Positions 5,631 to 64,000 of a DNA stretch of 64,000 nucleotides are shown here, piece by piece; positions within the stretch are counted from its first letter, which is position 1; each line of letters begins with the position of its first letter. The notes below the pieces were generated by a model. That model was not told the DNA's origin and did no database searches. It worked only from the letters and a program-made list of their open reading frames with translations. The stretch covers positions 2,368 to 66,367 of the forward strand of contig CAVPNQ010000096.1 in assembly GCA_963706735.1 (NCBI GenBank). The letters are read 5' to 3'. A program made the translations under genes and the position numbers. This DNA comes from an uncultured Planctomycetia bacterium. GTDB lineage: Bacteria; Planctomycetota; MHYJ01; WSZJ01.

Positions 5631-6722
5631 CTAGCTGATCAACGGCACTCCGCCCGCCTTGCCGGCCTTCGGCGCCGGGGCCGCGGCCTCGCCGCCGCCC
5701 GCCGCCTTGCGCTTCTTCTCTTCCGAGATCGCCGCAATCAGCGCGCCCGCCGCAACCGCCTTCAGCGGGTCCTTCGCATGACGCACGCCCTTGACCGGGA
5801 TCGGAAGACCGATCTCGCGCAGGCAATTCTTGAAGCGGTCCACGAACCCCGGGGGCTTGCTCGTTCCGCCGGCGATCACGATCTCGACAGGCTCGTCGAT
5901 CGTGGCGTTGGCGGCCTTGAGCTGCTGGCCGATGTTCGTGATGACGTAACGGATCAGGTCCTCGTAGTAAATCTCGAGCGCGACCATGATCTGGTCCGTC
6001 GGGTCGATCCTGTCGAAGTTCAGGTACTTCTCCTTGTGGCTCTGCACCTTCGACACCGGCACGCTCCTCACCTTCGCCACCTGCCGGTCGATCCAGTCGC
6101 CCGAACGCCCGCAGGAGAACTCAAGCAGCTTCTTCGCGCGCCACGACGCCGCGAGGTTCACCATGCCCGCGCCCCACGAAATCGCGATGCCCGTGAACGG
6201 CAGCACCTCGTTGTTGATCGTGACCGTCGGGTTCTCGCTGTAGATGATGCACATGGCTTCGTTAATACACTTCACGTCGTACCCGAGCTTCTTGAGGAAC
6301 CGCTCGAGCACCATCCGGTGGAACGTGACGTCGAATTCGGCGTCGATCGGGTTGGCGGGCATCGTCGCGCAGATGACCTCGCCCGGGTAGCTCGGCTTGC
6401 CCACCACGGCCTCGAGAAGAACTTCCATCATGCTGATGGCTTCTTCCTCGCCGGGGTTCAACACGCCCTTCGCCATCGGGCGGCGATAGTCCTTCTGGTT
6501 TCCCGTCACCATCGAGAACTTGAGAGCGTCCTCGCCGACGACGTAGATCTGCTCGCCCTTGATGATGTAGAAGGCGCCGGCCTTCGTGAGCATGTCTTCC
6601 GCGAAGTCCTCGTTGGGCATCGAGAAGAACGCATCACGTTCCATCGTGAACACTTCCTTGCCGTCCTTGAGCTCCGCTCCCACGAGGAAGCACGTCCCGA
6701 TGTCGACTCCCTTAGCGCACAT
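5631..6722 (-). CDS. actin-fold (ASKHA) ATPase, divergent actin/ParM/MreB-like protein with a Lys/Ala/Gly-rich tail
   Basis: Phosphate-1-like GVDIGTCFLV at the N-terminus, phosphate-2-like ISWGAGMVN, adenosine motif IAGGTSKPPGF. The C-terminal tail is EEKKRKAAGGGEAAAPAPKAGKAGG. An SD-like aaagggg lies upstream. Confidence 0.65.
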   Translation of the reverse strand: MCAKGVDIGTCFLVGAELKDGKEVFTMERDAFFSMPNEDFAEDMLTKAGAFYIIKGEQIYVVGEDALKFSMVTGNQKDYRRPMAKGVLNPGEEEAISMMEVLLEAVVGKPSYPGEVICATMPANPIDAEFDVTFHRMVLERFLKKLGYDVKCINEAMCIIYSENPTVTINNEVLPFTGIAISWGAGMVNLAASWRAKKLLEFSCGRSGDWIDRQVAKVRSVPVSKVQSHKEKYLNFDRIDPTDQIMVALEIYYEDLIRYVITNIGQQLKAANATIDEPVEIVIAGGTSKPPGFVDRFKNCLREIGLPIPVKGVRHAKDPLKAVAAGALIAAISEEKKRKAAGGGEAAAPAPKAGKAGGVPLIS

Positions 6723-6799
6723 TCCGGCCCCTTTCTACCAGATGGTGATCAATGTGCCGTGGCAGGGCGGCCGTGCCGCCCCGCGAGGCCCTCTGTTTG

Positions 6800-10135: not shown

Positions 10136-11911
10136 ATGATGCATCGGCTGTTCGCGTGTCTGCTCGTGCTCGGCGCCTGCGCGAGTTCCGCCTCGGCGCA
10201 GTCGGTGATTTACGGCGAGAATTTTGACGGCGGTCCCGCCGGGACCTTGCCGGCTGGATGGTCTGCGGATGCGCCGACTGGCACGGTCGGCTGGTCGGTG
10301 GACGCCACTCCGGCCGTGGACGGCGTCACTTCCGGGATGCACACGTTCTCCGGAGGCTGCTACGCCTCCATTCCCAGCACCCCGATGCCGCCCCCCATGT
10401 TCGGCACGGCTCCGTTCACGCTCAATTTCAATAACGGCGTCAATACAGAGAGCGGCGGGCTTTACTCAGGAGGGGCAACCTCTCCCGTGGTCACGGTTTC
10501 CTCCCTGACAGGAGTGACTTTGACGTTCTGGTGTCGTCATGAGGGCCTGACCTGCGATGTGTCGCCGTCGGCCGCCGGATTCGGCAGCGATCAGAAGTTC
10601 GTCGAGATCCTCGATTCAACAGGCTCAACTGTCTTGCTCTCCGTCCAGATCTGCGTCGATGCCGATGGCGACGGCGCGGCTCCTTATACCTCGAGCAGCC
10701 CGCTGATCAACACCTGCTACGAGATGTTCTCTGCTCACACCCATACCCTCGACATCAGCGGAATCGCGGTCACATCGTTCCGCATCCGGTTCCGGGCGAA
10801 CGAAGTCGTGGAAAGCACCTTGGCCGCTACCCTCGGGCCGGACACGCTCTGGATGGGATGGTTCGTCGATTCGGTCTCCGTGAACTGCCCCACGGCCGAC
10901 CTCGCTGCTCCGACCATTCCCACGCAAATCGCGCCCGCTTCGGGGATCACCGTTGTTTCCCCTGTCGTGTTCGACTGGTCCGACTCGACAGATACGGCTC
11001 CCTGCGGCCCTGGCACCGTGGTGTACCGCCTCCAGATCGACAATCTGGGAACAGTCGGCTTTCCCGACTTCGATATCCTCGGCATTGGAGCCTCAACGGC
11101 AGCCCAGGCCCTTGCTCCGGGCAGCTACGAGTGGCGAGTGCTCGCGACCGACGGAAGCGGGAATTCCAGCGCGTTCACGGGTTTGTCACCGTTCGACGTT
11201 GAAGTCAACCTTCCACCGGATCTGGCCGACACGCTGTTTGTCAACGAGTCCATCAACGGGGCCCAGAATGGGGAACCGGGTTTTGTGGATCCCGTGACGG
11301 ACCAGGAGCCCGTGTTCAGCGCGATTTATCGTGACGCCAATGCGGCGCCGGATTTTGCCGCGGGCCTGCGTTACCAGGTTTCTCTCGACCCAACGTTTGC
11401 CACCTTCGTCTTCGATTCCGGGCTGGTCGGCCTCAGCCCGGTGCTGCCCGATGACACGCGTTGCCCGGATTTGACGATCAACGTCACGCTGTCTCGCGAT
11501 ACGGTGTACTTCTGGCGTATCCAGTTCACGGACGTTGGTGGAATCACCGGCGCGTTCAGCCCGGCCCAATCGTTCCGCATCGGAGATGACTTCGAATTCG
11601 GCGTCCGGAAGGGCTCGTCTCACCACGGTCGTCGTTGCTGGGTTGCGACCGCGGCGTGGGGTAGCGAGTCTTCGCGCGTGGTGACGGAGTTGCAGGCTTG
11701 GCGAAGCAGCGCACTCGAAGCTGTCCCCGTGGGCCGGATGGCTTCCCGCGCGTATCACGTCGGCGGAGCCGTGGCCGCCGAGGGGATGTCGAAGTTGGGC
11801 ATCGTCGAGGTGTTCAAATCACCCCTGACCGGCTCGCTAGCCTCGATCGCGATCATCGGCATGCTGTTCATCCTGGCGATCGGCGCATCCCGTTTCAGCG
11901 TCCGTAGCTAA
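10136..11911 (+). CDS. secreted repeat/Fn3-like protein with a C-terminal Cys-x-x-ATAAxGS box and membrane anchor
   Basis: Signal peptide MMHRLFACLLVLGACASSASA with an SD gagggga upstream. The C-terminus is CWVATAAWGSESSRVVTELQAWR followed by the TM helix SIAIIGMLFILAIGA, resembling the recurrent CFxATAAYGS-type C-terminal sorting box (family name recalled, not verified). Confidence 0.7.
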   Translation: MMHRLFACLLVLGACASSASAQSVIYGENFDGGPAGTLPAGWSADAPTGTVGWSVDATPAVDGVTSGMHTFSGGCYASIPSTPMPPPMFGTAPFTLNFNNGVNTESGGLYSGGATSPVVTVSSLTGVTLTFWCRHEGLTCDVSPSAAGFGSDQKFVEILDSTGSTVLLSVQICVDADGDGAAPYTSSSPLINTCYEMFSAHTHTLDISGIAVTSFRIRFRANEVVESTLAATLGPDTLWMGWFVDSVSVNCPTADLAAPTIPTQIAPASGITVVSPVVFDWSDSTDTAPCGPGTVVYRLQIDNLGTVGFPDFDILGIGASTAAQALAPGSYEWRVLATDGSGNSSAFTGLSPFDVEVNLPPDLADTLFVNESINGAQNGEPGFVDPVTDQEPVFSAIYRDANAAPDFAAGLRYQVSLDPTFATFVFDSGLVGLSPVLPDDTRCPDLTINVTLSRDTVYFWRIQFTDVGGITGAFSPAQSFRIGDDFEFGVRKGSSHHGRRCWVATAAWGSESSRVVTELQAWRSSALEAVPVGRMASRAYHVGGAVAAEGMSKLGIVEVFKSPLTGSLASIAIIGMLFILAIGASRFSVRS

Positions 11912-38470: not shown

Positions 38471-38558
38471 GCGTGCATGGCGGAATCGGCATACGCAGCG
38501 GTCTTTAAAACCGCGGCTCCTTGGCGGGAGATTGAGGGTTCGACTCCCTCTGCACGCA
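38471..38558 (+). tRNA. class II (Leu-type) tRNA with anticodon UUA, a predicted ochre (UAA) suppressor
   Basis: Manual fold: GCGTGCA-TG-GCG-GAATCGGCATA-CGC-A-GCGGT-CTTTAAA-ACCGC, a variable arm of about 18 nt, then GAGGG-TTCGACT-CCCTC-TGCACGC-A. The anticodon is positions 38505-38507 (TTA). The D-arm is near-identical to bacterial tRNA-Leu, and the discriminator is A. Confidence 0.7.
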
Positions 38559-38566
38559 TCGAGGTT

Positions 38567-38661
38567 GCTGGCATGGCGGAATTAGCAGACGCAGCCGACT
38601 TGGGATCGGCGGGGGTATCCTTGACCGGGGCCCCGTACGGGTGCAAGTCCCGTCGTCAGCA
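38567..38661 (+). tRNA. atypical 95-nt Leu-type tRNA-like gene with anticodon UGG (possibly a pseudogene or non-canonical tRNA)
   Basis: Fold: GCTGGCA-TG-GCG-GAATTAGCAGA-CGC-A-GCCGA-CTTGGGA-TCGGC, a 26-nt variable region, then ACGGG-TGCAAGT-CCCGT-CGTCAGC-A. The acceptor has 6/7 pairs, the T-loop has G at position 55, and the variable region is over-long. The flanks cgaggt/acctcg extend the stem and are followed by cttttt. Confidence 0.45.
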
Positions 38662-38819
38662 CCTCGCTTTTTCACAGAACGTAGAAGCGATGGCCATCTA
38701 ATCGCCGCTGCATCGACATGTCAAGAAGATCTCTTGCCGCGCTGCGTCAACTCCTCGGCGCGCCAGCCTGATCACCTTTAGGAGTTTATTTCAAATCCGC
38801 TTGCCGGCGCGCCCAAGCC

Positions 38820-39400: not shown

Positions 39401-39474
39401 GCCGGATGGGTTCAAGTGTTCGCGTGGGCGGGTGGCGCGAAGCGCTCGACACTCCGTATACTCCGTCACCAACA

Positions 39475-40761
39475 ATGCCACACCTCCAACAAAGCCTCTT
39501 CGGTGAGACCCAGCCTCTTTCAACGCGGCCAAAGAAGGCGGATACCTCCTCAACGTTCGCCGGGAACACCAAGCTCCCCGTGCATCGCTGGTTTCGTTTC
39601 AGCCCTGGATTCTCGGCGCCATGGGCCGAGTCGGTCATTCGAGATGCAGGAGCAACCCGCGTCCTGGATCCGTTCGCCGGGTCGGGTACCACGCTCCTTG
39701 CTGCAGAGGATGTCGGAGTGGAAGCCATCGGGGTAGAGGCTCATCCGTTCATATATCGCGTCGCTTTCGCGAAGCTGTTTCGTCGTTCTGACCCGGAAGA
39801 TTTCCTCGCGCGAGTCCGAAAAATTCGTTCCTCCGCCGCGCGGCGCAAGGGATCCAGTGAGGGGTACCCGTCGCTCGTAGAGCGGTGTTACCCGCCGGAC
39901 GTGCTTGCTGCACTGGATGCGCTTCGCGCAGCGGTAGAGGACTCTCGCGATGATTCAGCAGCATGGCATCTCTCCTGGATGGCGCTGGTGTGCATCTTGC
40001 GGATGTGCTCCCCGGTGGGAACGGCCCAGTGGCAATACGTGCTGCCCAGCAAGGTGAAAAAGCGCACGGCAGAGCCCTTCATGGCGTTCGATTCGATGAC
40101 TCAGGGCATGGCCGCGGACATGCGAACGGTAAGGTGCGCCGGGCCCCGAGCCCGTGTACTCGCGGGTGACGCCCGAAACCTAGCTGACGTGCCGGACGGC
40201 TGGGCCGATCTCGTCGTTACCTCGCCTCCGTATCCCAACAACTACGACTACGCTGACGCGACACGGCTTGAGATGTGTTTCTTCCGCGAAGTAAATGGCT
40301 GGGGGGATCTCCAAGAAACGGTGCGCAGGCTCTTGGTTCGAGCCTGCACGCAACATGTCCCGGAGCGAGCCGTGAATCTCGGCGAAGTGCTCGCCGCGCC
40401 CGAGTTGGCACCCATCCGCAAACCACTCACCGAGGTCTGCGAACAACTCGCCGAAATCCGGAAGACGAAGGGCGGGAAGAAGACCTACCACCTCATGGTC
40501 GCGTGCTATTTCCACGATCTTGCGCGAACGTGGCAGGCACTCCGTCGCTGCGCCGCTCCCGGCGCGCGCGCGTGCTTCGTCATCGGGGATTCAGCTCCTT
40601 ACGGTGTCTACGTCTCGGCCGTGGAATGGTTGGGTGAACTGGCGCTCGGCGCCGGATTCAGGACTTGGGAGTTCGAGCGGACGCGGGATCGAAACGTAAA
40701 GTGGAAGAATCGAAAACACCGCGTCCCGCTTTGCGAGGGGCGACTTTGGGTGAAAGGCTGA
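39475..40761 (+). CDS. SAM-dependent DNA methyltransferase (N6-A/N4-C type; motif I before motif IV)
   Basis: ATG at 39475. Motif I VLDPFAGSGTTLLAAE, motif IV LVVTSPPYPNNYDY, and a C-terminal FVIGDSAPYG. Followed 3 nt later by a nuclease-like gene. Confidence 0.75.
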   Translation: MPHLQQSLFGETQPLSTRPKKADTSSTFAGNTKLPVHRWFRFSPGFSAPWAESVIRDAGATRVLDPFAGSGTTLLAAEDVGVEAIGVEAHPFIYRVAFAKLFRRSDPEDFLARVRKIRSSAARRKGSSEGYPSLVERCYPPDVLAALDALRAAVEDSRDDSAAWHLSWMALVCILRMCSPVGTAQWQYVLPSKVKKRTAEPFMAFDSMTQGMAADMRTVRCAGPRARVLAGDARNLADVPDGWADLVVTSPPYPNNYDYADATRLEMCFFREVNGWGDLQETVRRLLVRACTQHVPERAVNLGEVLAAPELAPIRKPLTEVCEQLAEIRKTKGGKKTYHLMVACYFHDLARTWQALRRCAAPGARACFVIGDSAPYGVYVSAVEWLGELALGAGFRTWEFERTRDRNVKWKNRKHRVPLCEGRLWVKG

Positions 40762-40764
40762 TCG

Positions 40765-41628
40765 GTGGCTACCTCCCCGACACACAGGTTCGGCCAGATC
40801 ATCGGCGATGTTCTCGAGGCGGCGCTAAATGAACCGCTTTCGGAAGTGGCGAAGCGACACGGGCTGTACCTCGACTGCAAACGCCCGCGCGCAGCTCGAG
40901 GTGGAAAGTCGAAAGTCGGATGGGATGACAACAAGGGGAACCGGCACGACTTGGATTATGTCCTAGAGGCGGGTGGAACAGACGCTACCGTTGGACGGCC
41001 GAAGGCATTCATCGAAATCGCGTACCGCCGCTATACGAAGCACTCGCGCAACAAGTCCCAAGAAATTCAAGGCGCGATCACTCCGCTCTGCGAAACGTAC
41101 GCACAGGACCACCCGTTCATCGGCGGCGTGTTGGCCGGCGTCTTCACGGAGGGATCGCTTACCCAACTTCGCTCTCACGGATTTGACGTGCTCTACATGC
41201 CGTTCGACAGCATCGTCAAGGCCTTCAAGGTGGTCGGGATAGACGCGTACTTTGATGAGGAATCGGAGGATTCTGAGGTGCAACGCAAGGTGGACAAATG
41301 GAATCGTCTCCCCGCGAACGCCACAGCAAAGGTCGGGGCAGAGATGCGCAAGGTCGAAAGCGCCGCGTTTGCCAAGTTCGTGACTGGGCTGGAGGTGGCG
41401 CTCAACCGTTCGGTCACTTCGGTTTTCGTGCTGGCCTTACACGGCCAAGCGAAGGAGGTGACCACTGTCGAGTCCGCCATTGCCTTCATCGACGGGTTTA
41501 ACGAAGCGAGGGCGGGTGGAAAGTTTGTGAGGTTCGAGGTAAATGTCCGCTACTCGAATAGAGACGAGATTCGCGGCACGTTCGAGTCAAAAGTAGAGGC
41601 CATCAGGTTTCTGCAGAGCCTTGTCTAG
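40765..41628 (+). CDS. putative restriction endonuclease (PD-(D/E)XK-like), partner of the methyltransferase
   Basis: GTG start 3 nt after the MTase stop. The segment NRHDLDYVLEAGG...KAFIEIAYRRYTKH resembles a D...E-x-K nuclease core. No other family recognised. Confidence 0.5.
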   Translation: MATSPTHRFGQIIGDVLEAALNEPLSEVAKRHGLYLDCKRPRAARGGKSKVGWDDNKGNRHDLDYVLEAGGTDATVGRPKAFIEIAYRRYTKHSRNKSQEIQGAITPLCETYAQDHPFIGGVLAGVFTEGSLTQLRSHGFDVLYMPFDSIVKAFKVVGIDAYFDEESEDSEVQRKVDKWNRLPANATAKVGAEMRKVESAAFAKFVTGLEVALNRSVTSVFVLALHGQAKEVTTVESAIAFIDGFNEARAGGKFVRFEVNVRYSNRDEIRGTFESKVEAIRFLQSLV

Positions 41629-56782: not shown

Positions 56783-57862
56783 ATGATCCGCGCCGCCACG
56801 TTCGCCATGCTGCTGCTCGCCGCCGGGGCCGCCCGCGCCGACCTCATCACCCTCAAGGATGGACGCGTCATCGAGGGGGACGTGATCTCCGACGACGGGA
56901 AAGTCGTAAAGGTCAAGCTGCGAATGGGCGCGGTGACGCTCGAAAAAGACCAGATCGCCTCGATCGAGGAGAAGGCGACGCCGGAGCAGGAGTACGAGGC
57001 TCGGCTGGCGAAGCTGGATGCCGGCAGCGCGAGGGAAAACTTCGATCTCGGGGCGTGGGCCGAAATGGTGAGGCTCGAGAAGCTGGCCGTGAAGCACTAC
57101 ATCGCGGCCGCCACCCTGGACCCGGAGATGAAGGTCGCGGTTGACGAGTTGACGTCGCGGGACTGGCACCTGGTCGAGGGCGAGTGGCAGGACGCCGACA
57201 CCTACTACCCTTCGCGCGGCTACGTCCGCTTCGAAGGCCGCTGGGCCCACCCCCTGGAGTACTCCTGGCGCCTGTCGCAGCAGATCCGCAAGAAGCTGGA
57301 GGAGCGGCTGGCCGCTTCCCGCTCGCAGGTGTCGCGCGAACACAGCGCCGGCGCGCGCGCGGAGGCCGCGGGAATCGCCGCCCGCCGCACGATCGCCACC
57401 CGGACCGCCGAGCGCCGCGAAGCAGAGGCCGCGATCCCGGATGCGGAAGCGGCGGCCCGGACGGCGGAGCGGGCCCGCGACCGGGCGGAGCGCGTGGTGG
57501 AGCGCGCGCAGTGGAGCTACGACCAGGAGCGGCTGCGCCAGCAGCGCGGGGAACCCAACGCGCTGGGGCAGGCGGACATCGACCTGAGGCAGGCGAAGCG
57601 CACCTTCGCGCTCGCGGAGTTCGACCGCGCGACGGCGGAGCAGCGCGTGACGGATCTCAACAAGCTCACGGCCGCGCTCTCGGCCGCGATCGAGGATGCC
57701 GAGGAATCCGCGGCGAAGAACGAGAAGATCGCGGCCGCCGCGGCGGAGGCCGAAAAGGAAGCGCTGGCGGGGCTTCACGAGGTCGAGCAGCAGGTGGAGG
57801 CCGCGAAGGGCGCCGAGGAAAAAGCGAAGGCGGAGTGGGAGAAGGCAAAGCCCGCGAAGTAG
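56783..57862 (+). CDS. secreted coiled-coil protein (hypothetical)
   Basis: ATG at 56783 gives the signal MIRAATFAMLLLAAGAARA. The C-terminal half is Ala/Glu/Arg-rich coiled coil. Confidence 0.6.
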   Translation: MIRAATFAMLLLAAGAARADLITLKDGRVIEGDVISDDGKVVKVKLRMGAVTLEKDQIASIEEKATPEQEYEARLAKLDAGSARENFDLGAWAEMVRLEKLAVKHYIAAATLDPEMKVAVDELTSRDWHLVEGEWQDADTYYPSRGYVRFEGRWAHPLEYSWRLSQQIRKKLEERLAASRSQVSREHSAGARAEAAGIAARRTIATRTAERREAEAAIPDAEAAARTAERARDRAERVVERAQWSYDQERLRQQRGEPNALGQADIDLRQAKRTFALAEFDRATAEQRVTDLNKLTAALSAAIEDAEESAAKNEKIAAAAAEAEKEALAGLHEVEQQVEAAKGAEEKAKAEWEKAKPAK

Positions 57863-57909
57863 CCCGGGCGAGGGAACCGCTTCCGCGCGCTGAGGGTACA
57901 ATCGCCGGG

Positions 57910-60216
57910 ATGAAGAAACTTGCCGCGGCCGTCCTGGCGCTGTCCTCCGTGGTCGCCGGTTGCGAAAAGAAAACTCCGGCCGCGGCGCCTCCTCCCCCGG
58001 CGGGCGGCCCGGCCGTCCCCCCGCCCTCAAACGGCGGCGGATCGAAGCCCCCGACCGATGGCGGATTCGCCCCCGTCAATTCCTACCAGGGCCGCGACAT
58101 CGAGCAGTGGGCCGCCCTCCTCGAATCCCCGAACCGCGACGAACAGAACTCCGCCATCATGGCCCTCGGCCGCATCGGGCCCGCTTCCGTCCCCGTCCTG
58201 CGCGACCGCCTCCGGCACAAGCACGCCGACGTGCGCGTCGCGGCGGCCACCGCGTTCGGCGTGCTCGGACGCATGGGCGCCGACGGCGTGCCCTCGCTCG
58301 CCCTCGCCCTGTCCGATGAGGACTTCAAGGTCCGCGTGGCCGCCGCCGAGGCCCTTCGAGCCATGGGACCCGTCTCGGCTCCCGCTTCCGGCGCGCTCGT
58401 CCTGGCCCTCGCGGACGACGCGGGCAAGGTCCGCGAGTTTGCGGTGCAGGCGCTCGCGGCGATCGGGCAGCCCGCCGTCCCGGACCTCGTCGCCGCCACG
58501 CGCGAAACCGGCCGCGCCATCCGCGAACGCGCCCTCAACGCCCTCGCTTCCATGCTCCCGGGCGTCACTCCTCCCGTGGAGCCGTTTCGCGAAGCGATTC
58601 TCGAGCCGGCGACGCCGCTGAGGCTGGCCGGTGTGCGCGGGCTGGCCCGCATGGGCGCCGCCGCGGCTCCCGCGGCCGCCGAAATCGCCAGCCTGCTCAC
58701 GGATGCCGACCCCACGGTCGCCGAGATCGCGACCGATGCGCTCGCCAAGATCGGCCCTTCCGCTCTAGAGCACATCCAGAAGAACATCGCCGGCGCCACG
58801 CCGCAGGTCCGGGCCCGCGCGTTCAAGTCCATGGGCGGCTGCGGTGCCGCGGCCGTGCCGTTCCTCAAGGCGGGGCTCGCCGATCCCGAATCGACCGTCC
58901 GGTTCGCGGCCGCCGGCGCCCTCGGCGTCATCGGCCCCGCCGCGGCCGACGCGGCGCCCGCCCTCGTCGAACTCCTCGGGGACCCCGAAGAGGGCACCGC
59001 CGGGCGCGCCGTCTGGGCGCTCGGGCGCATCGGCGCAGGCGCCATCGAATTCCTCGAGGGCGCCCTCGTGCTCCCGTCCGCGCTCGCCCGCCGCCGCGCC
59101 TGCGCGGCGCTGGGGGAAGCAGGCCCGGCGGGCGCGCCCGCCGCGGCATCGATCGTCCGCGCGCTCCGCGACGAGAACGCCGAAGTCCGCGCCGCTGCTG
59201 CCGAGGCCCTGGGCAAGCTAGGCCCGGCCGCCGCGCCCCAGGCCGTCGCCGCGCTCGCGTCCCCCGATCCGTTCACCCGCGCCGCCGCCATCCGCGCCCT
59301 CGGCGCTTTCGGCGCCGAGTCCGTCCCCGCCCTCATCGAAGTGCTCCGGAAGCCCGAGTCATTGCTTCAGCGCCTCGCCGCCCAGGACGCCCTCAAGTCG
59401 ATCGGCTCTCCCGCGCTGGTCCCGGTGGCCGCCCTGGTCAAGGACGAAGACAAGGACCTCCGCGCCGCGGCGGCCGAGGTCCTGGGGGGGATGGGCGCGT
59501 CGGGCGTCCCCGTTCTCATGGAACTTCTCGACAGCAAGGACCCCGCGCTCCGGAAGCTTGGCGCGGAGAAGCTCGGCCTCGCCGGGCAGATGGGCGGGCC
59601 CGCGATCCCGGCGCTCTGCGTGCTCCTCCGCGACACGGACGTCGAAATGCGCCGCGCCGCGGCGACCGCCATCGCCGCCATCGGCACCAAGGACAGCGCC
59701 TCATCGGAAGCTTGCGAGAAGGGGCTCACCGATGTCGATCCCGTCGTGCGGGCCGCGTGCGTCATGCCGTACCTCGCCGGCTGCGCGCAGGTCAGCGACG
59801 CCGTGGCGAAAATCGCCCCCCTGGCGCGCGATCCTGACAGCCGCGTGATCGCTTCCGCCCTCCTCGCCCTCACCAGCGACGTCCCCAACATGCTCGGATC
59901 CATCGGCCCGCTCTTCCACGAGGTCGCCATCCCGGCCATGGTGGACGCCTCCCTGAACGCCGACCCCGCGGCCCGCATCGCCGCGGCCGCCGCCCTCGGC
60001 GCCGTCGCGGGGCGCGACGCCGCTCCCGTCGAAGCGCTGGTCAAGCTCGGCAAGGACAAGGACGCCACCGTCCGCGCCGCAGCCTGCACCGCCATGGGCG
60101 GAATCCGCCCCGACCTGTCCGGCAGCGCGAAGATCGTGCTCCGGGAAGCGGCGAAGGATCCCGAGGCCGCGGTGCGCGACGCGGCGGAAGCGGCGCTGAA
60201 GAAGCTCGGCGAGTAG
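57910..60216 (+). CDS. large HEAT-repeat lipoprotein (about 20 PBS-lyase-type repeats)
   Basis: ATG at 57910 gives MKKLAAAVLALSSVVAGC (lipobox). The translation is repetitive: DxxVRxAAAxALGxIGPxAxxAxPALxxxL. Confidence 0.8.
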   Translation: MKKLAAAVLALSSVVAGCEKKTPAAAPPPPAGGPAVPPPSNGGGSKPPTDGGFAPVNSYQGRDIEQWAALLESPNRDEQNSAIMALGRIGPASVPVLRDRLRHKHADVRVAAATAFGVLGRMGADGVPSLALALSDEDFKVRVAAAEALRAMGPVSAPASGALVLALADDAGKVREFAVQALAAIGQPAVPDLVAATRETGRAIRERALNALASMLPGVTPPVEPFREAILEPATPLRLAGVRGLARMGAAAAPAAAEIASLLTDADPTVAEIATDALAKIGPSALEHIQKNIAGATPQVRARAFKSMGGCGAAAVPFLKAGLADPESTVRFAAAGALGVIGPAAADAAPALVELLGDPEEGTAGRAVWALGRIGAGAIEFLEGALVLPSALARRRACAALGEAGPAGAPAAASIVRALRDENAEVRAAAAEALGKLGPAAAPQAVAALASPDPFTRAAAIRALGAFGAESVPALIEVLRKPESLLQRLAAQDALKSIGSPALVPVAALVKDEDKDLRAAAAEVLGGMGASGVPVLMELLDSKDPALRKLGAEKLGLAGQMGGPAIPALCVLLRDTDVEMRRAAATAIAAIGTKDSASSEACEKGLTDVDPVVRAACVMPYLAGCAQVSDAVAKIAPLARDPDSRVIASALLALTSDVPNMLGSIGPLFHEVAIPAMVDASLNADPAARIAAAAALGAVAGRDAAPVEALVKLGKDKDATVRAAACTAMGGIRPDLSGSAKIVLREAAKDPEAAVRDAAEAALKKLGE

Positions 60217-60225
60217 AAGGGGCCG

Positions 60226-60254
60226 AAAAAAAACCGGCGGGCATCGCCCGCCGG
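60226..60254 (-). terminator. intrinsic terminator for the minus-strand DUF867 gene (hairpin shared with the converging HEAT gene)
   Basis: ccggcgggc-atc-gcccgccgg is preceded on the plus strand by aaaaaaaa, which is a U-tract on the minus strand. Confidence 0.75.
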
Positions 60255-60276
60255 CTTGTGGGTTCACACTCGACGC

Positions 60277-60930
60277 CTATCCCAGCTCGCGCACGACCTC
60301 GATCAGCGCCGTCACCAGCTGCGCCGCCGCCCCGCGAATCGCCGGGACCGCTTCGTCCCGCAGCGCCCGCGGCAGCTCGATCTGCACGCCCTTCTTCGGC
60401 ACCCGGTTGATGATGTTGTCCTTGTGGTGCCCCACCAGGTCGTCGGGAATGCGCGCGTGCTCGTCCACGACCTCGTAGGCGCCCTTCAGCGCATGCCTCA
60501 TCGCCCCGGCGCACAGTTCGACCGCTTCCGCAGCCAGCCCGCTCACGTACACCGGCCCGCCGTCCTTCGTGCGGCCGTGCCCGTGGATCGAGATGGCGAC
60601 GCGGGTCGCGGCAATCGCCTGGTCGAGTTTCGGCGAAATGCCGGTGGTCATGCGCGTGACGGTCACATGAAGCGCGGTGTTTCCGGTCGGGCGCTTCGCG
60701 GACAGGACGTACAGCGTGGCGCCGGTGGCCTGTGCGACGGCGCGGGCGATTTCCTCGGTGCCGGGCTCGATGCCTCCGCCGTGGGGGGCGAAGATGCCGA
60801 CGCCGTTGCCGGGCAGGAAGACCTCGCGGACCGCGGGGTCCTTGAGGACGGCCTTGAACTCGGGTTCCTTTGAGGATTTGGCCGAGGACTTGGCCGACGA
60901 CTTGGCGGGCTTGGCTTTGAGGACTTTCAT
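60277..60930 (-). CDS. poly-gamma-glutamate hydrolase-like protein (DUF867/PghP/YjqB family)
   Basis: ATG at 60930. The translation IFAPHGGGIEPGTEEIA...VAISIHGHG...QIELP is characteristic of the phage-associated PghP/UPF0714 zinc hydrolase fold. The N-terminal tail is KAKPAKSSAKSSAKSSK. Confidence 0.65.
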   Translation of the reverse strand: MKVLKAKPAKSSAKSSAKSSKEPEFKAVLKDPAVREVFLPGNGVGIFAPHGGGIEPGTEEIARAVAQATGATLYVLSAKRPTGNTALHVTVTRMTTGISPKLDQAIAATRVAISIHGHGRTKDGGPVYVSGLAAEAVELCAGAMRHALKGAYEVVDEHARIPDDLVGHHKDNIINRVPKKGVQIELPRALRDEAVPAIRGAAAQLVTALIEVVRELG

Positions 60931-61116
60931 TCTTTTCTCCCTCTTGCGCGGAAAGCCGATTGTACCCGAAAGAGGGGTGCGGCGGGAGGGGGAACTTTGG
61001 GAATTGCCGCGGTGCGTCAGGGGCGGGAGGACTTGTCCGCGAAAAGCGTCCTCTTGCAAGGATTTATGTTTTTGAAGCGGAGGTCTTGCGTGCCGCGACT
61101 CCGAGGAATCGTTCCG

Positions 61117-61959
61117 TCACTCCTCGTGGACGTAAGCTTCAAGAATTTCGATTTCGCTCTTCAGATCAGATGCGCTGGCTTCAACGCCGTCCATCCCGGT
61201 TTCCACATCGGACATCCCGGACTCCAAGTCGATCATCAGTAGCTCAAGGTCATCGCGTACGTCTCGCCAGTTCGAGCGTCGGTCGGAGAATTCACCGACC
61301 TTTGACGTGACGTTGTCCACTTCATCCCGCAGCCGAGCAACCTCGCTTGTCAGCTCTGACACTTCGTTTTCGAGCGCCTCGGCCTTCGCCTCAAGTTCTC
61401 CCCCTGTGGTGTCGGTCCCCGGTTGACGGGAAGTCGTATGGGGCCGTTCCGAGTCTCCAGGAGGCGAAGGTGTTCGGAAATAGAGGACGAAATTCAGAAG
61501 AACGGAAACTATCGAGACTCCAACCCAGATGCCTGCCGCGTTGGGACGCGCACTCTGGGAGACTGATCGGTGAGAAGTGGACTCATCCTCCGGGTCGAAC
61601 AGCATATCCGCCGCATCTGGATCGTCATCCGTGGGAAGGCCATCTGATGCGGATTCATCCTCCGGGTCTAACAGCATATCCGCCGCGTCGGGATCGTCAT
61701 CCGTGGGAGATTCATCTGAAGCGGATTCATCTTCCGGGTCGAACAGCAGATCTGCAGCCTTGATTTCATCTTCTGCGGGTCGGCCATCTGAAGAGGACTC
61801 ATCCTCAGGGTAGTGGGTAGTTGCCGCTCCATCTCCGCATACCCTCCCAGAGTGGGCATCGAAGGAAGTGCCACACAACCGGCAACTGACCCGATGCGTT
61901 CGCGCATCTGTCGGTGGGCGCTCCTTAGACATTCCGCACTTCGGACACCGGAGTCGCAT
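61117..61959 (-). CDS. zinc-ribbon (MJ0042-type) membrane protein with acidic tandem repeats and a C-terminal coiled-coil
   Basis: The start at 61959 (MRLRCPKCG...CRLCG) follows gggaga with 5-nt spacing. About 2.4 copies of a 24-aa acidic repeat (LFDPEDESASDxxPTDDDPDAADM), one TM helix (IWVGVSIVSVLLNFVLYF), then a heptad-rich tail. GC is lower than the flanks. Confidence 0.65.
   Translation of the reverse strand: MRLRCPKCGMSKERPPTDARTHRVSCRLCGTSFDAHSGRVCGDGAATTHYPEDESSSDGRPAEDEIKAADLLFDPEDESASDESPTDDDPDAADMLLDPEDESASDGLPTDDDPDAADMLFDPEDESTSHRSVSQSARPNAAGIWVGVSIVSVLLNFVLYFRTPSPPGDSERPHTTSRQPGTDTTGGELEAKAEALENEVSELTSEVARLRDEVDNVTSKVGEFSDRRSNWRDVRDDLELLMIDLESGMSDVETGMDGVEASASDLKSEIEILEAYVHEE
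61583..61760. repeat. 72-bp tandem repeat (about 2.4 copies) inside the zinc-ribbon protein gene
   Basis: The unit tcatcctccgggtcgaacagcatatccgccgcatctggatcgtcatccgtgggaaggccatctgatgcggat recurs with few substitutions. Confidence 0.8.
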
Positions 61960-62198
61960 GGCACTCTCCCGAGATAGAGAATCCACAGAAGTGTAGATTG
62001 GGTTGGCATGCGAGAAGCACGAGATCTCAAACCAAACGATTGGATGAGATCCGCGGTTAGATCCGAGCGAAGGGGGAGCGCTTCGTTTGCTCGGTCATTT
62101 GCTACGTTCGACGGTCGCGCACGGTCACGTCGCCGTCCCGCCACTTCTCGCCGCAAGCCCTTGTGTCCTTACGTGTTTCCAGTCACCTTCGGGCGTTA

Positions 62199-62233
62199 GG
62201 CGGAGTGGCGGAACTGGCAGACGCAACGGATTC
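62199..62233 (+). repeat. orphan 5' half of tRNA-Leu(CAA) (att-like direct repeat, left copy)
   Basis: ggcggagtggcggaactggcagacgcaacggattc is identical to 63907-63941. The sequence diverges inside the anticodon loop and no T-arm or acceptor 3' strand follows. Confidence 0.85.
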
Positions 62234-62506
62234 CCAATCGTTTCAAGTAGTTTCGCGGAGATTCGACCAGGCGAGCAGCAAGGGGATTCTTCCCGCGGCG
62301 GCCCGTATTCGTTTCACGGCGGTCTCTCGGCCGGATTTCCGCCCCCTCGACTGTCTTCGACTCGTCGGATGGCACAAGTACGGCACAACAGTACCCGGGC
62401 AACCCTCGCGAGGTAGAATCGAGCGACGGCGCAGCAGGGTCGCGCTCCTTTTGGGTGGCGAGGTCAAGCCAGACCTCTGGACCGCCTTCGGCTTTCACGG
62501 AGGTTG

Positions 62507-63721
62507 ATGGTGGACCGCAAGCTTCCCGAAACGTGGAGAGTTCCAGCTTTCATCGCGATGCTTCAAACTCCAGAAGCGACGAAGCTGGAGTGGTGGCCGG
62601 GGATGCATGACCTGGATCGCTTCTACTCCATGGTCGAGCGTCTCTTCGGGATCAAGAAGGATGACTTCCCCCGCAACGGTCCCCAGTCTTCGCTCAACCT
62701 GAAGCAGTATTTAGAGATGCCACGTGTAGAAGAGCGTAACCGCAAGGAGATGGCGAGGTTGATTCGAGCGGGAACGGTGTCTGTGCGCCCTGAGCACAAC
62801 ACGGCATTCGCCCTCGAATTGCTCGACCCGGACAGGTACGGCGAAGAATTTGAAAGGTCTTCTACTGGAGCGAGTGGAGGAGTTGACATGCCGAAGGCGA
62901 GGTCTGGGGGCGGTGAAGAGCGAAAACCTAAGAGAGAGATTGTTCACTTGAGGGTCGATAGGGAGAGAGCGGCTTCGCTCTTGCAAAACTGTCTCGACGA
63001 GATGAAGGAGCACTACATTCCCGACCTTGCGATGAATCACTTCGCGCCCGGGATAAGGGCCAAAGCACAGACGTGGACGGACAAATGCGAGGCAGTCCTG
63101 AAGTTGATTTTCGGAGAAGGTCAGACCGTCGACGACTTCTGTGATGCTGGAACCCCGTTCTATTCTGCGGATGACTTCGTCCATCGTTATAAGAAGCTCC
63201 TTGGGGTTCAAGCGTCACTTCCGTACATCGAACAGGCGAACCCGATAGCGGCTGTCCCGAAGGCACCGAACTACTCCACCACGAAGGTCTTCATCGTTCA
63301 CGGGCACGCGCCCCTTAGGCACGAAGTGGAACTCTTCCTAACGAAGATCGGGCTCACCCCGATCATCCTTGAGGAACAAGCCAGCAAGGGAATGACGGTG
63401 ATCGAGAAGCTGGAACACTGCGCCGATGTCGGCTTCGCCGTGGTCCTTCTCACGCCTGACGATGTGGGAGGCAAGCTGGCCGAAGATCCCACCAAGCAGG
63501 CGTTGAAGCCGCGGGCCCGTCAGAACGTGATCCTGGAACTCGGCTACTTCGTCGGGAAGCTCGGAAGGGATCGAGTCTGCGCACTCAAGAAGGGTGAACT
63601 TGAAGAGCCCGGCGACTTCGAGAACGTCGTGTACGTCTCGTACGATGATGGGAAGTGGGGCATCAAACTTGTGAAGGAGCTTGAGGCCGCAGGGATGACT
63701 GTGAATCGCGGGGGGATGTAG
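62507..63721 (+). CDS. protein with a C-terminal TIR-like nucleotide-binding domain (CAP12/Pycsar-effector TIR type) and an unknown N-terminal domain
   Basis: The C-terminal 140 aa or so read KVFIVHGHAPLRHEVELFL...FAVVLLTPDDVG...ARQNVILELGYFVGKLGRDRVCAL, matching the COG4271/PF10137 pattern including the conserved Glu. The N-terminal 260 aa or so are unrecognised. The start is ATG 62507 (the track uses TTG 62504). Confidence 0.7.
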   Translation: MVDRKLPETWRVPAFIAMLQTPEATKLEWWPGMHDLDRFYSMVERLFGIKKDDFPRNGPQSSLNLKQYLEMPRVEERNRKEMARLIRAGTVSVRPEHNTAFALELLDPDRYGEEFERSSTGASGGVDMPKARSGGGEERKPKREIVHLRVDRERAASLLQNCLDEMKEHYIPDLAMNHFAPGIRAKAQTWTDKCEAVLKLIFGEGQTVDDFCDAGTPFYSADDFVHRYKKLLGVQASLPYIEQANPIAAVPKAPNYSTTKVFIVHGHAPLRHEVELFLTKIGLTPIILEEQASKGMTVIEKLEHCADVGFAVVLLTPDDVGGKLAEDPTKQALKPRARQNVILELGYFVGKLGRDRVCALKKGELEEPGDFENVVYVSYDDGKWGIKLVKELEAAGMTVNRGGM

Positions 63722-63906
63722 CTAGCGAATACCCGAAGCCCCCCGCGCAACCTCAGGCCAAAGGCACTTCTTCAGAGTTCCCCCAGCACCACCCCGAAAC
63801 CGGGCGGAAGTGACACAAGTACGGCACAAGCGGCGAAGTCGGCGCAGGTTGTGTAGCAGGCGCAGTTGACGTAACCTCTTGCTCGACACACAAGTGAGTG
63901 TCACTC

Positions 63907-63990
63907 GGCGGAGTGGCGGAACTGGCAGACGCAACGGATTCAAAATCCGTCGGGCTCACACCCGTGAGGGTTCAATTCCCTCCTCCGCTA
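63907..63990 (+). tRNA. tRNA-Leu (anticodon CAA)
   Basis: Fold: GGCGGAG-TG-GCG-GAACTGGCAGA-CGC-A-ACGGA-TTCAAAA-TCCGT, long variable arm CGGGCTCACACCCGTG, then AGGG-TTCAATT-CCCT...CTCCGCT-A. G1:U72 is a wobble pair. Confidence 0.85.
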
Positions 63991-64000
63991 TCGTCTCGAA

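Follow-up and report, generated by a model that had tools for sequence, protein, structure and literature searches.

The window, a 64,000-nucleotide stretch of planctomycetal DNA, ends 10 nt past an intact tRNA-Leu(CAA) gene (63907–63990; all features below are on the forward strand), recognised by ARAGORN and by Rfam (tRNA, 55.6 bits). The first 35 nt of this gene (63907–63941) recur identically and in direct orientation at 62199–62233, as the original prediction had reported, and sequence comparison, ARAGORN and Rfam agree that only the right copy continues into a complete tRNA. The 35-mer has no further match in the window at up to three mismatches (0 expected, 100 shuffles). The repeat stretches to 41 nt with two mismatches (62199–62239 against 63907–63947), owing to which the left copy has CCC in place of the CAA anticodon, with AATC next. 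This left copy corresponds to nt 1–41 of tRNA-Leu(CAA), a 5′ fragment displaced to a position upstream of the intact gene, and ends 2 nt beyond the anticodon loop; its nt 1–35 equal those of the intact gene, and it was aligned three ways with the related locus L009. We refer to it as the attL core and to the first 41 nt of the intact gene as the attR core.

Between the copies lie 1673 nt, hereafter the cassette, with a single ORF that has homologues (62504/62510–63721); the remaining ORFs are overlapping frames in GC-rich DNA. The claim of one gene in 1.67 kb is upheld, and the gene content also agrees with the earlier statement that the cassette encodes no cyclase, SAVED or ThsA-like partner and no integrase. 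Nor was an integrase found among the 24 larger ORFs of the window scanned against Pfam, and an Rfam scan of the window gave tRNAs and nothing else. GC content is 58% over the last 2 kb, compared with about 67% for the window, a sign of foreign origin. Flanking genes in the window encode proteins of the PGA-hydrolase family and zinc-ribbon/coiled-coil and HEAT-repeat proteins. The zinc-ribbon neighbour was considered as a partner and rejected: it is absent from both relatives described next and has weak coiled-coil matches only.

Two related loci were compared with the window. In L009, a related metagenome contig, a PGA-hydrolase-family gene (77% amino acid identity to that of the window, orientation unchanged) is followed by 425 nt and then by an intact, insert-free tRNA-Leu(CAA), to which the tRNA of the window is identical at 83 of 84 positions. 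An empty tRNA-Leu site, the comparison proposed with the original prediction, thus exists in a relative; since the three genomes are too diverged to be aligned in the intergenic DNA that precedes the tRNA or its fragment, the empty-site argument is one of gene synteny. The other locus is a contig (L001) of the Planctomycetia MAG SJ466 (GCA_020849035.1), and it is occupied. Homology between SJ466 and the window begins precisely at the tRNA fragment (5651–5691 in SJ466, anticodon intact) and covers 1.6 kb through the TIR gene at 83.6% identity. Past this gene more than 6 kb of the element remain on the SJ466 contig. They carry a 230-aa orphan ORF, one HTH_17 gene, a primase-helicase (D5_N/DUF5906) that an IS interrupts, and another HTH_17 gene before the contig ends; both HTH_17 genes are AlpA/excisionase-like. 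The SJ466 element spans more than 7.5 kb and includes the left end and the TIR gene as in the window. Its contig ends before the right end of the element and carries no integrase. A tandem array in SJ466 was ruled out, a second tRNA fragment being absent, and the SJ466 primase had no match in viral contigs.

Between the window and SJ466, dS is 0.57 for the cassette gene and 0.62 and 0.89 for flanking chromosomal genes, so that the insertion is probably older than the split of the two genomes; separate recent acquisitions were rejected on this comparison. A search of metagenome contigs for the attL junction gave no matches, and a genome-collection scan with the protein returned the SJ466 contig alone. 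The 5′ half of the tRNA was found at 55 loci in metagenome contigs, all of them intact tRNA-Leu genes and none with a tRNA fragment nearby; L009 was the sole close relative among them. The TIR gene is patchily present among close relatives. An exact-protein look-up in Logan contigs of run ERR12036780 gave contigs of 1.7 and 5.2 kb, both of which end within repeat copies, where a k=31 graph is expected to break if the sequence truly occurs twice.

The left arm of the element, which is also the leader of the TIR gene (62240–62509), is non-coding, aligns without gaps to SJ466 at 84.5% identity and closes with a GGAGG Shine–Dalgarno (SD) sequence (62497–62501). It opens with a terminator-like hairpin that is degraded in the window and intact in SJ466 (stem of about 18 bp with a T-rich tail, by MFE). 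A conserved small ORF here was ruled out by stops in SJ466 and by the absence of codon periodicity from the 265-nt leader, in which no ORF is open in both genomes. Within the left arm lies a phased repeat, TGGCACAAGTACGGCACAA (62370–62388), composed of two GGCACAA(GT) units 11 nt apart, to which a recombinase or an accessory protein may bind. This repeat occurs twice in the window (0.01 expected), and the left copy is kept at the matching place in SJ466. Downstream of the gene, a 3′ untranslated stretch (63722–63790) is still homologous to SJ466, and homology to the larger element stops at about 63790. The right arm (63791–63906), which adjoins the intact tRNA, has no counterpart on the SJ466 contig and matched no full-length element; it carries the second phased repeat (63811–63829) and another CACAAGT at 63889. 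A simple promoter and terminator scan of 61900–64000 gave none, and the right arm showed no sigma-70-like promoter.

Read from a GTG with GGAGG 6 nt upstream, the TIR-domain gene (62510–63721) encodes 403 aa, with 100% identity to the database protein P0001; TTG 62504 and ATG 62507 are alternative in-frame starts. It is under purifying selection, with a dN/dS against SJ466 of 0.08–0.19 for each of three segments. The first segment (62510–62887), a helical orphan extension at the N-terminus, is 126 codons long and has an omega of 0.13 and a pLDDT of 42–73; 23 of its 35 differences from SJ466 are at third codon positions. It had no match among 1.84 billion representative proteins or in Pfam, PADLOC and PHROG, is dissimilar to the small ORF upstream of one homologue (P0037), and is present only in the window and one MAG. 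The second segment (62888–63283) is a helical-bundle middle domain (pLDDT up to 97) that starts at an internal ATG, 62888, with an SD sequence, GGAGGAG, 5 nt upstream (62876–62882). This ATG aligns with the canonical start of a family of proteins of about 290 aa (N-termini such as MPK or MAK). Amino acid identity of the middle domain to P0002 is 64%, and its dS and dN against SJ466 are 1.30 and 0.25; as judged from these substitution estimates, this sensor-like domain diverges much faster than either flank. An N-terminal domain of about 260 aa had originally been called unrecognised. That description fits the 126-aa extension and fails for the remainder, a family helical domain of about 128 aa; the fold check proposed for this part returned, for the middle domain alone, a helical structure unmatched in the PDB (best E=1.2) and, for the extension, low pLDDT.

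The third segment (63284–63646) is, as predicted, a TIR domain of CAP12/Pycsar type that keeps the conserved Glu. It matches Pfam PF10137 over positions 1–118 of the 119 of the profile (residues 261–381; 112.7 bits against a cut-off of 24.7, E=1.3e-32). The AF2 model of the domain has a pLDDT above 90, and its top nine Foldseek matches in the PDB are TIR-STING chains (E down to 1.9e-5), the best structures being 9lmq and 7un8. A non-TIR fold, against which the prediction was to be checked, is thereby set aside. The catalytic Glu, E344 (codon GAA, 63536–63538), lies in helix αC, with the NAD+-pocket Arg and Asn just upstream in RARQNV; R338, N340 and E344 are invariant across 119 homologues and align to R78, N80 and E84 of SfSTING. 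Weaker Foldseek matches are to DNPH1/Rcl N-glycosidases and receiver domains. Nucleotide N-glycosidases such as DNPH1/Rcl likewise have TIR-like folds, so that NAD+ is a putative substrate.

By sequence, the protein belongs to a widespread stand-alone family of candidate anti-phage genes. At least 5984 homologues were found at E≤0.001, and among the matches listed most are of about 290 aa. The PADLOC check suggested earlier returned five PDC-S35 models (E=3e-63 to 1e-41), with the match confined to profile positions of about 110–258, that is to the C-terminal 150 or so residues (245–401); the N-terminal part of the models was unmatched, and the middle domain alone did not match them. phrog_16442 matches at E=5e-50, the PycTIR model weakly in the TIR part (E=2e-7), and the NCBIfam Cap12 equivalog scores 27 bits against a cut-off of 450. 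The PDC sets are described as candidate defence genes, and PDC-S35 is listed by PADLOC among candidates from genes embedded in BREX, DISARM and type I RM systems (10.1101/2024.01.29.577857). Our literature search found no paper that mentions PDC-S35 and nothing experimental on stand-alone PF10137 proteins of about 290 aa.

Homologues lie at a prophage end beside two integrases (L063), in a Thoeris/Z1/Mrr island (L064–66), in a toxin–antitoxin/IS/integrase island (L059) and next to a HepT–MNT pair (L069); two of the seven examined have housekeeping or metabolic-looking neighbours (L062 and L067). The neighbourhood comparison foreseen in the original prediction accordingly gave mostly mobile-element or defence settings. 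IMG/VR viral contigs hold 206 relatives; of the 79 examined, 26 are no more than 2 kb from a contig end. Neighbouring genes vary among the window, SJ466 and the other homologues, and the TIR gene has no conserved partner. With the PDC-S35/PF10137/phrog_16442 proteins of about 290 aa the cassette protein shares the C-terminal TIR, in which Arg, Asn and Glu are invariant, a helical domain of some 130 aa at the N-terminal side, the single-gene format, and carriage of the family on prophages, at integrase-adjacent spots and in defence islands; it differs in the added 126-aa extension, which has no detectable homologue. The original view of the gene as a stand-alone sensor-effector candidate holds as to the single gene; its architecture is not new, given PDC-S35, phrog_16442 and the thousands of homologues. 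Single-gene TIR architecture is already known, and the cassette is a clear case of known kinds rather than a new kind; it does not overturn current views.

The TIR subfamily, the fold and the Arg/Asn/Glu NAD+ site are shared with the Cap12/TIR-STING effectors of CBASS (SfSTING, 7un8, 9lmq), and oligomerisation-activated NAD+ hydrolysis, as in these effectors, would be the likely mode of action. In contrast to them, the cassette protein has no STING or other cyclic-nucleotide sensor, a CD-NTase is absent nearby, and the TIR domain is C-terminal, whereas it is N-terminal in Cap12. Assignment to CBASS is not warranted, the cyclase and STING/SAVED being absent and the N-terminal 260 aa containing no Pfam domain. 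The same holds for Pycsar, whose PycC cyclase is absent from the adjacent genes, and for Thoeris: the cassette has a single gene, no ThsA-type effector, and a TIR of PF10137 rather than PF08937.

We favour, as the probable origin of the cassette, an integrated element of tyrosine-integrase type that has decayed to an att-flanked remnant, with a stand-alone TIR abortive-infection candidate as its cargo. The ancestral mobile element would have borne an attP with a copy of tRNA-Leu(CAA) nt 1–41 and would have inserted into a Planctomycetia chromosome at the anticodon loop of this tRNA gene. The pre-existing 5′ part of the tRNA, together with its native upstream region, would thereby have been displaced to the left end (62199–62239), and an intact tRNA restored at the right end (63907–63990) from the copy of the element. 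Later, the genome of the window would have lost all but the left 1.6 kb, comprising the leader and one cargo gene, and about 116 nt of right arm. As this arm adjoins the intact tRNA upstream, it should now supply the tRNA promoter, and it has probably been kept because it now drives the tRNA. The outcome would be an att-flanked remnant without an integrase, resembling a cis-mobilizable element (CIME). Absence of the integrase is best explained by decay, because the closest relative, SJ466, has an element of more than 7.5 kb that shares the left end and the gene. Since neither genome shows an integrase and both right sides are incomplete, we infer site-specific integration and the direction of the deletion from anatomy only.

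Duplication of the 5′ half of a tRNA had been regarded as unusual. It is no anomaly but a documented minority class: in the Islander collection, 159 of 3919 islands (about 4%) displace a 5′ tRNA fragment (PMC4383910). An intact tDNA with a terminal fragment in the same orientation, upstream in the case of a 5′ fragment, is the recognised mark of tDNA islands, and Islander further requires an integrase gene inside the interval and no less than 2 kb in length (PMC4383910). The cassette resembles these islands in its intact tDNA and same-orientation upstream 5′ fragment, in the identity that ends just past the anticodon loop, in its low GC content and in the unoccupied site of L009. It differs from them in having no integrase and only 1.67 kb, and it would therefore fail the Islander filters as a remnant rather than an island. 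CIMEs are decayed elements that keep attL and attR and have lost their integration and transfer genes (PMC5704250). Here too the att cores and arm repeats are kept without integration or replication genes, and a larger relative exists in another genome, SJ466, which shares attL and 1.6 kb, has 6 kb more, and has its right end off the contig. The CIME concept was, however, defined for derivatives of Firmicutes ICEs and IMEs at 3′ tRNA ends, and mobility of the cassette is putative, with the two anticodon-loop mismatches arguing against it. The defence cargo at the ends of P4-like satellites, prophages and integrative elements offers a further parallel, as SJ466 has HTH_17 genes, a D5-type primase-helicase and a defence candidate beside an att site. 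P4-like satellites have a gene set resembling that of the SJ466 element; the latter differs in showing no integrase, capsid-redirecting or packaging genes and in its Planctomycetia host. The cassette adds a Planctomycetia case to the rare islands that displace 5′ tRNA ends, and it would be a natural example of the persistence of a defence gene after decay of the element that delivered it, the cargo and, probably, a short tRNA-serving arm being left.

As cargo of such a remnant, the TIR protein would most likely act as a single-gene abortive-infection defence. Its variable helical domain, and perhaps also the orphan extension, would sense infection and drive oligomerisation; once the TIR domains had assembled, their conserved Arg/Asn/Glu site would hydrolyse NAD+. 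As a variant of an abundant TIR family, the protein combines an orphan extension with a rapidly evolving middle domain and may also have an internal start, and it could be of use in studies of infection sensing.

The form in which the protein is made admits a second reading, namely that only a 277-aa protein from ATG 62888 is synthesised and that the upstream 126 codons are either a conserved leader or what was once a gene of its own. A strong SD sequence precedes the internal ATG and is conserved in SJ466, this ATG aligns with the N-termini of the 290-aa family, the SJ466 orthologue is annotated by NCBI as 276 aa, and the extension has no homologues and a poorly resolved model. However, the selection on the 126 codons operates in the frame of the TIR gene, as their omega and third-position differences indicate, and the extension has its own conserved SD sequence and GTG and runs without a stop into the TIR part in both genomes. 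The extension, if translated, would therefore be fused to the TIR part. We regard exclusive use of the internal start as unlikely; both isoforms may coexist.

Less probable still is a working miniature rather than a remnant, in which the defence gene and functional att sites would be moved in trans by an integrase encoded elsewhere, in the manner of a CIME or an integron cassette. Such elements have precedent in the CIME concept (PMC5704250), both att cores are kept with 35 nt identical, and phased GGCACAAGT repeats stand in both arms, as for arm-type binding sites. At 84.5% identity the non-coding leader is better conserved than synonymous sites, where about 40% of positions differ. In Logan, the cassette contig has the repeat at each of its two ends, a layout as compatible with an integrated copy as with a circle; a circle would be diagnosed by a junction running from the right arm through the 5′ part of the tRNA to GTTTCAAGTAG in the left arm. 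Against mobility, copies of the junction were found nowhere else in metagenome or genome collections, and no integrase was found in the 64 kb. SJ466 shares the insertion with a chromosome-like dS, suggesting long vertical residence. Strands are presumably exchanged within the 7-nt anticodon loop, where two mismatches also fall, and for tyrosine recombinases mismatches in such a region should block excision. A more elaborate version seems very unlikely to us: a trans-mobilisable defence cassette that holds its host hostage through the sole promoter of tRNA-Leu(CAA), a state that would follow from the 5′ type of integration, and that makes two isoforms, a 277-aa TIR effector typical of the family and a 403-aa form whose orphan N-terminal domain would be a new phage sensor or auto-inhibitor.

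A housekeeping role is about as improbable as trans mobilisation. The TIR-like protein would then be a regulatory or metabolic protein that binds or processes nucleotides and that adjoins the tRNA by chance. The database name of the family, “predicted nucleotide-binding protein”, the metabolic neighbours of two homologues and the weaker fold matches to DNPH1/Rcl-type N-glycosidases and receiver domains would suit this, and the functional role of the 290-aa family is itself a predicted one. Yet immune TIRs (PycTIR and Cap12/TIR-STING) lead the sequence and fold matches, the NADase triad is conserved, PDC-S35 is among the PADLOC candidates from genes within BREX, DISARM or type I RM, and prophages, integrase-adjacent spots and defence islands are frequent settings of homologues. 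Low GC content and patchy presence in close relatives likewise argue against it.

Finally, that the duplication is an assembly artefact, a mis-join at the tRNA or a chimeric contig, is barely credible: although the source is probably a metagenome and short-read graphs break at the repeat, with Logan contigs stopping within it, the left copy differs at 2 of 41 nt and runs on into conserved element DNA, the independently assembled MAG from another study (SJ466) has the identical junction of fragment and element with the same next 1.6 kb, and the Logan contigs concur in containing both junctions.

The segment at 62199-63990 is largely explained as the decayed remains of a 5′-fragment-class integrative element in tRNA-Leu(CAA), which has kept one stand-alone TIR defence candidate. 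The 35-bp repeat described in the original prediction is confirmed: the 35-mers at 62199-62233 and 63907-63941 are identical, and with up to 3 mismatches allowed nothing else in the 64-kb window matches; no match at all is expected by chance. Of the two copies, the right one alone is part of a complete tRNA-Leu(CAA) (63907-63990; ARAGORN; Rfam 55.6 bits). The left copy represents the tRNA 5′ end and lies upstream of the intact gene in the same orientation, ending 2 bases past the anticodon loop. Similarity between the copies reaches 41 nt with 2 mismatches, the left-copy anticodon having changed from CAA to CCC. The claim that a single gene lies between the repeats also holds, as these 1673 nt contain one ORF with homologues (62504/62510-63721). 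A layout of this kind is the standard trace left by site-specific integration at the anticodon-loop sublocation of a tRNA gene, here in the rarer form where the 5′ part of the gene travels with the element. In the Islander survey, 159 islands have 5′ fragments against 3760 with 3′ fragments, and an upstream 5′ fragment counts as valid (PMC4383910).

Related contigs establish that the repeat is real and marks both ends of an inserted element. The first (L009, a 2.2-kb metagenome contig) is an empty site: a PGA-hydrolase-family gene, 77% identical in amino acids to that at 60277-60930 of the window and in the same relative orientation, is followed by 425 nt and then by an intact tRNA-Leu(CAA) without insert, identical to the window tRNA at 83/84 positions. 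The second is L001, a 13-kb contig from Planctomycetia MAG SJ466. Here too the PGA-hydrolase gene is the neighbour, next comes a tRNA 5′ fragment corresponding to that of the window but with an intact anticodon, and the left junction (...AATC followed by GTTTCAAGTAG) is shared with the window. Homology between window and L001 begins exactly at the tRNA fragment, spans 1.6 kb at 83.6% identity and stops about 70 nt beyond the stop codon of the TIR gene. From there to its end the L001 contig carries a 230-aa orphan ORF, an HTH_17 gene that is excisionase/AlpA-like, a D5_N/DUF5906 primase-helicase and a second HTH_17 gene; no tRNA or second tRNA fragment was found in the contig. We note that the primase-helicase (8613-12354 of L001) is split by an IS256-family transposase gene (10537-11793, minus strand), so the larger element is probably also disabled. 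Finally, two Logan contigs from run ERR12036780 (L002 and L149) are identical to window positions 62204-63936 and 57078-62228, each ending within a copy of the 35-nt repeat, as expected of a true repeat. This places the same organism in a public run whose reads could be mined for excision junctions.

In the window, the PGA-hydrolase gene is separated from the tRNA fragment by a low-GC gene (57%; 61117-61959, minus strand). Its 280-aa product has a zinc ribbon, a coiled coil, acidic 24-aa repeats encoded by a 72-nt tandem repeat (61574-61811) and a hydrophobic, TM-like stretch as judged by eye. Neither L001 nor L009 has this gene, so it represents an independent insertion next to this tRNA site.

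No integrase is encoded in the cassette, and none was found among 24 larger ORFs of the window, which are ordinary chromosomal genes (e.g. flotillin/NfeD, ZnuA/ABC-3, RNase D and acyl-CoA enzymes). GC content is lowest in the final 2 kb of the window (58%, compared to about 67% for the window). Cassette and flanking chromosomal genes show similar dS between window and L001 (0.57 for the former, 0.62 and 0.89 for the latter), so the common ancestor of the two probably already had the insertion. The simplest history is that of a larger, L001-like element whose interior was lost in the window lineage, leaving an att-flanked remnant without integrase that fits the definition of a cis-mobilizable element (CIME) (PMC5704250).

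The right arm of this remnant (63791-63906, the 116 nt before the tRNA) has no counterpart on the L001 contig. It contains one copy of a 19-nt motif, TG[G/A]CACAAGTACGGCACAA, the other copy being located 171 nt inside the left end, at a position conserved in L001 (two copies in the window against 0.01 expected). Two GGCACAA(GT) units, spaced by 11 nt, make up the motif, and an extra CACAAGT is found in the right arm 18 nt before the tRNA. Such phased repeats in both arms resemble arm-type recombinase or Xis sites and would be candidates for them. In the 5′-type configuration the intact tRNA is preceded by DNA of the element instead of by its native upstream sequence, which may be why the short right arm has been kept; a simple scan of the right-arm region detected no promoter. 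In L001 a long stem (~18 bp) with a T-rich tail directly follows the orphaned tRNA fragment, and the window version is degraded. The left anticodon loop carries two mismatches, which speaks against an integrase still being able to excise the element. A return to an L009-like site could still come about by homologous recombination between the 35-nt repeats.

The TIR protein matches PF10137 (CAP12/Pycsar TIR) over the full domain (Pfam, E=1.3e-32), five PDC-S35 models with E down to 3e-63 and, more weakly, CBASS-TIR and PycTIR (PADLOC), and phrog_16442 (PHROGs), and is far under the cut-off of the NCBIfam Cap12 equivalogs. Modelled by AlphaFold2 from 119 homologues, the TIR domain has a pLDDT >90 and is closest in the PDB to TIR-STING/Cap12 TIR domains (9lmq and 7un8). 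Residues R338, N340 and E344 (numbered from ATG 62507; Glu codon 63536-63538) are invariant in 119/119 sequences and align with R78, N80 and the catalytic E84 of SfSTING.

The predicted layout of 260 unrecognised residues plus a TIR domain was not borne out. Instead there are three segments, the first two divided at an internal ATG at 62888. Homologues are mostly ~290 aa, with N-termini (MPK.., MAK..) that align at this ATG. A strong Shine-Dalgarno sequence precedes it and is conserved in L001, and the annotated NCBI start of the 276-aa L001 orthologue corresponds to this ATG. A shorter isoform may also be made. For the 126 codons before 62888, a search of 1.84 billion representative proteins gave no homologue, and there is no family match. 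Between window and L001 this extension has a dN/dS of 0.13, third positions account for 23/35 differences, the GGAGG-N6-GTG start is conserved and no stop precedes the TIR part, indicating that the extension is translated and fused to it. The middle segment, from 62888 to the TIR domain, is a confidently modelled helical bundle for which no PDB fold match was found. It is strikingly more diverged (62888-63283 versus L001 6340-6735: dS 1.30, dN 0.25, 64% amino acid identity) than the flanking extension (dS 0.33) and TIR domain (dS 0.45). This pattern would fit recombinational or arms-race turnover of a putative sensor module, and the dS excess over the rest of the same ORF suggests a recombinational swap of the module.

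Sequence and model are best read as a single-gene abortive-infection system whose N-terminal helical region would detect an infection cue and bring about oligomerisation. The TIR domains would then come together into a composite active site, as they do in TIR-STING filaments (PMC9402430), and deplete NAD+. The fold and active-site residues are what the data establish; trigger, substrate and phenotype we infer. Its mode of working may resemble that of Cap12/PycTIR effectors, but since no cyclase, sensor domain or ThsA is present, the protein falls outside CBASS, Pycsar and Thoeris. It belongs to a known, abundant family of candidates and is not a new kind of system. Less ordinary, and noteworthy short of that, are the orphan extension under purifying selection, a possible additional start within the gene, the middle domain's mosaic divergence and the implied reliance of the tRNA on element-derived upstream DNA.

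PDC systems are 145 candidates that the PADLOC authors drew from genes lying within BREX, DISARM and type I RM loci (10.1101/2024.01.29.577857); we found no mention of PDC-S35 in the literature. A recent survey of TIR signalling excluded stand-alone TIRs, as well as TIRs judged to be NAD+-depleting effectors (10.64898/2025.12.03.692087). We inspected seven homologue neighbourhoods: a prophage end adjoining two integrases (L063), a Brevundimonas island with Z1/DUF4420, Mrr and ThsB-TIR/TIR_2 gene arrays (L064-66), a toxin-antitoxin/IS/integrase island (L059), a locus adjoining a HepT-MNT pair (L069), the L001 integrative element sharing the left junction of the window, and two mostly housekeeping contexts (L062 and L067). 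IMG/VR viral contigs yielded 206 confirmed relatives; 79 of these were examined, and 26 are at most 2 kb from a contig end, while no tRNA occurs within 3 kb of any. These settings and viral relatives indicate that the family is typical of the accessory or defence cargo that mobile elements carry. The tRNA link is particular to the window's element. In the Brevundimonas locus (L064, 11673-19746) the homologue adjoins two successive ThsB_TIR, TIR_2 and LD_cluster3 arrays, with the Z1/DUF4420 pair and an Mrr-like nuclease on the opposite side, forming a dense TIR-rich defence island.

Elsewhere in the window, two adjacent Leu-like type-II tRNAs with unusual anticodons occupy 38471-38663. The first is 88 nt long, with an ochre-suppressor-like UUA anticodon in the loop CTTTAAA (Rfam 56.4 bits), and the second is a 97-nt "tRNA-Pro(UGG)" scoring only 38.4 bits. 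Directly downstream, a type II restriction-modification pair (39406-41628; MTase_II E=1e-142, REase_II E=4e-64, PADLOC) lies in a 61% GC islet, the second small tRNA-adjacent defence islet within the window. An ORF at 5631-6734 (minus strand), in a Planctomycete-like chromosome, strongly matches PF25216 Volactin (Pfam, E=2e-74), an archaeal actin-like protein family.
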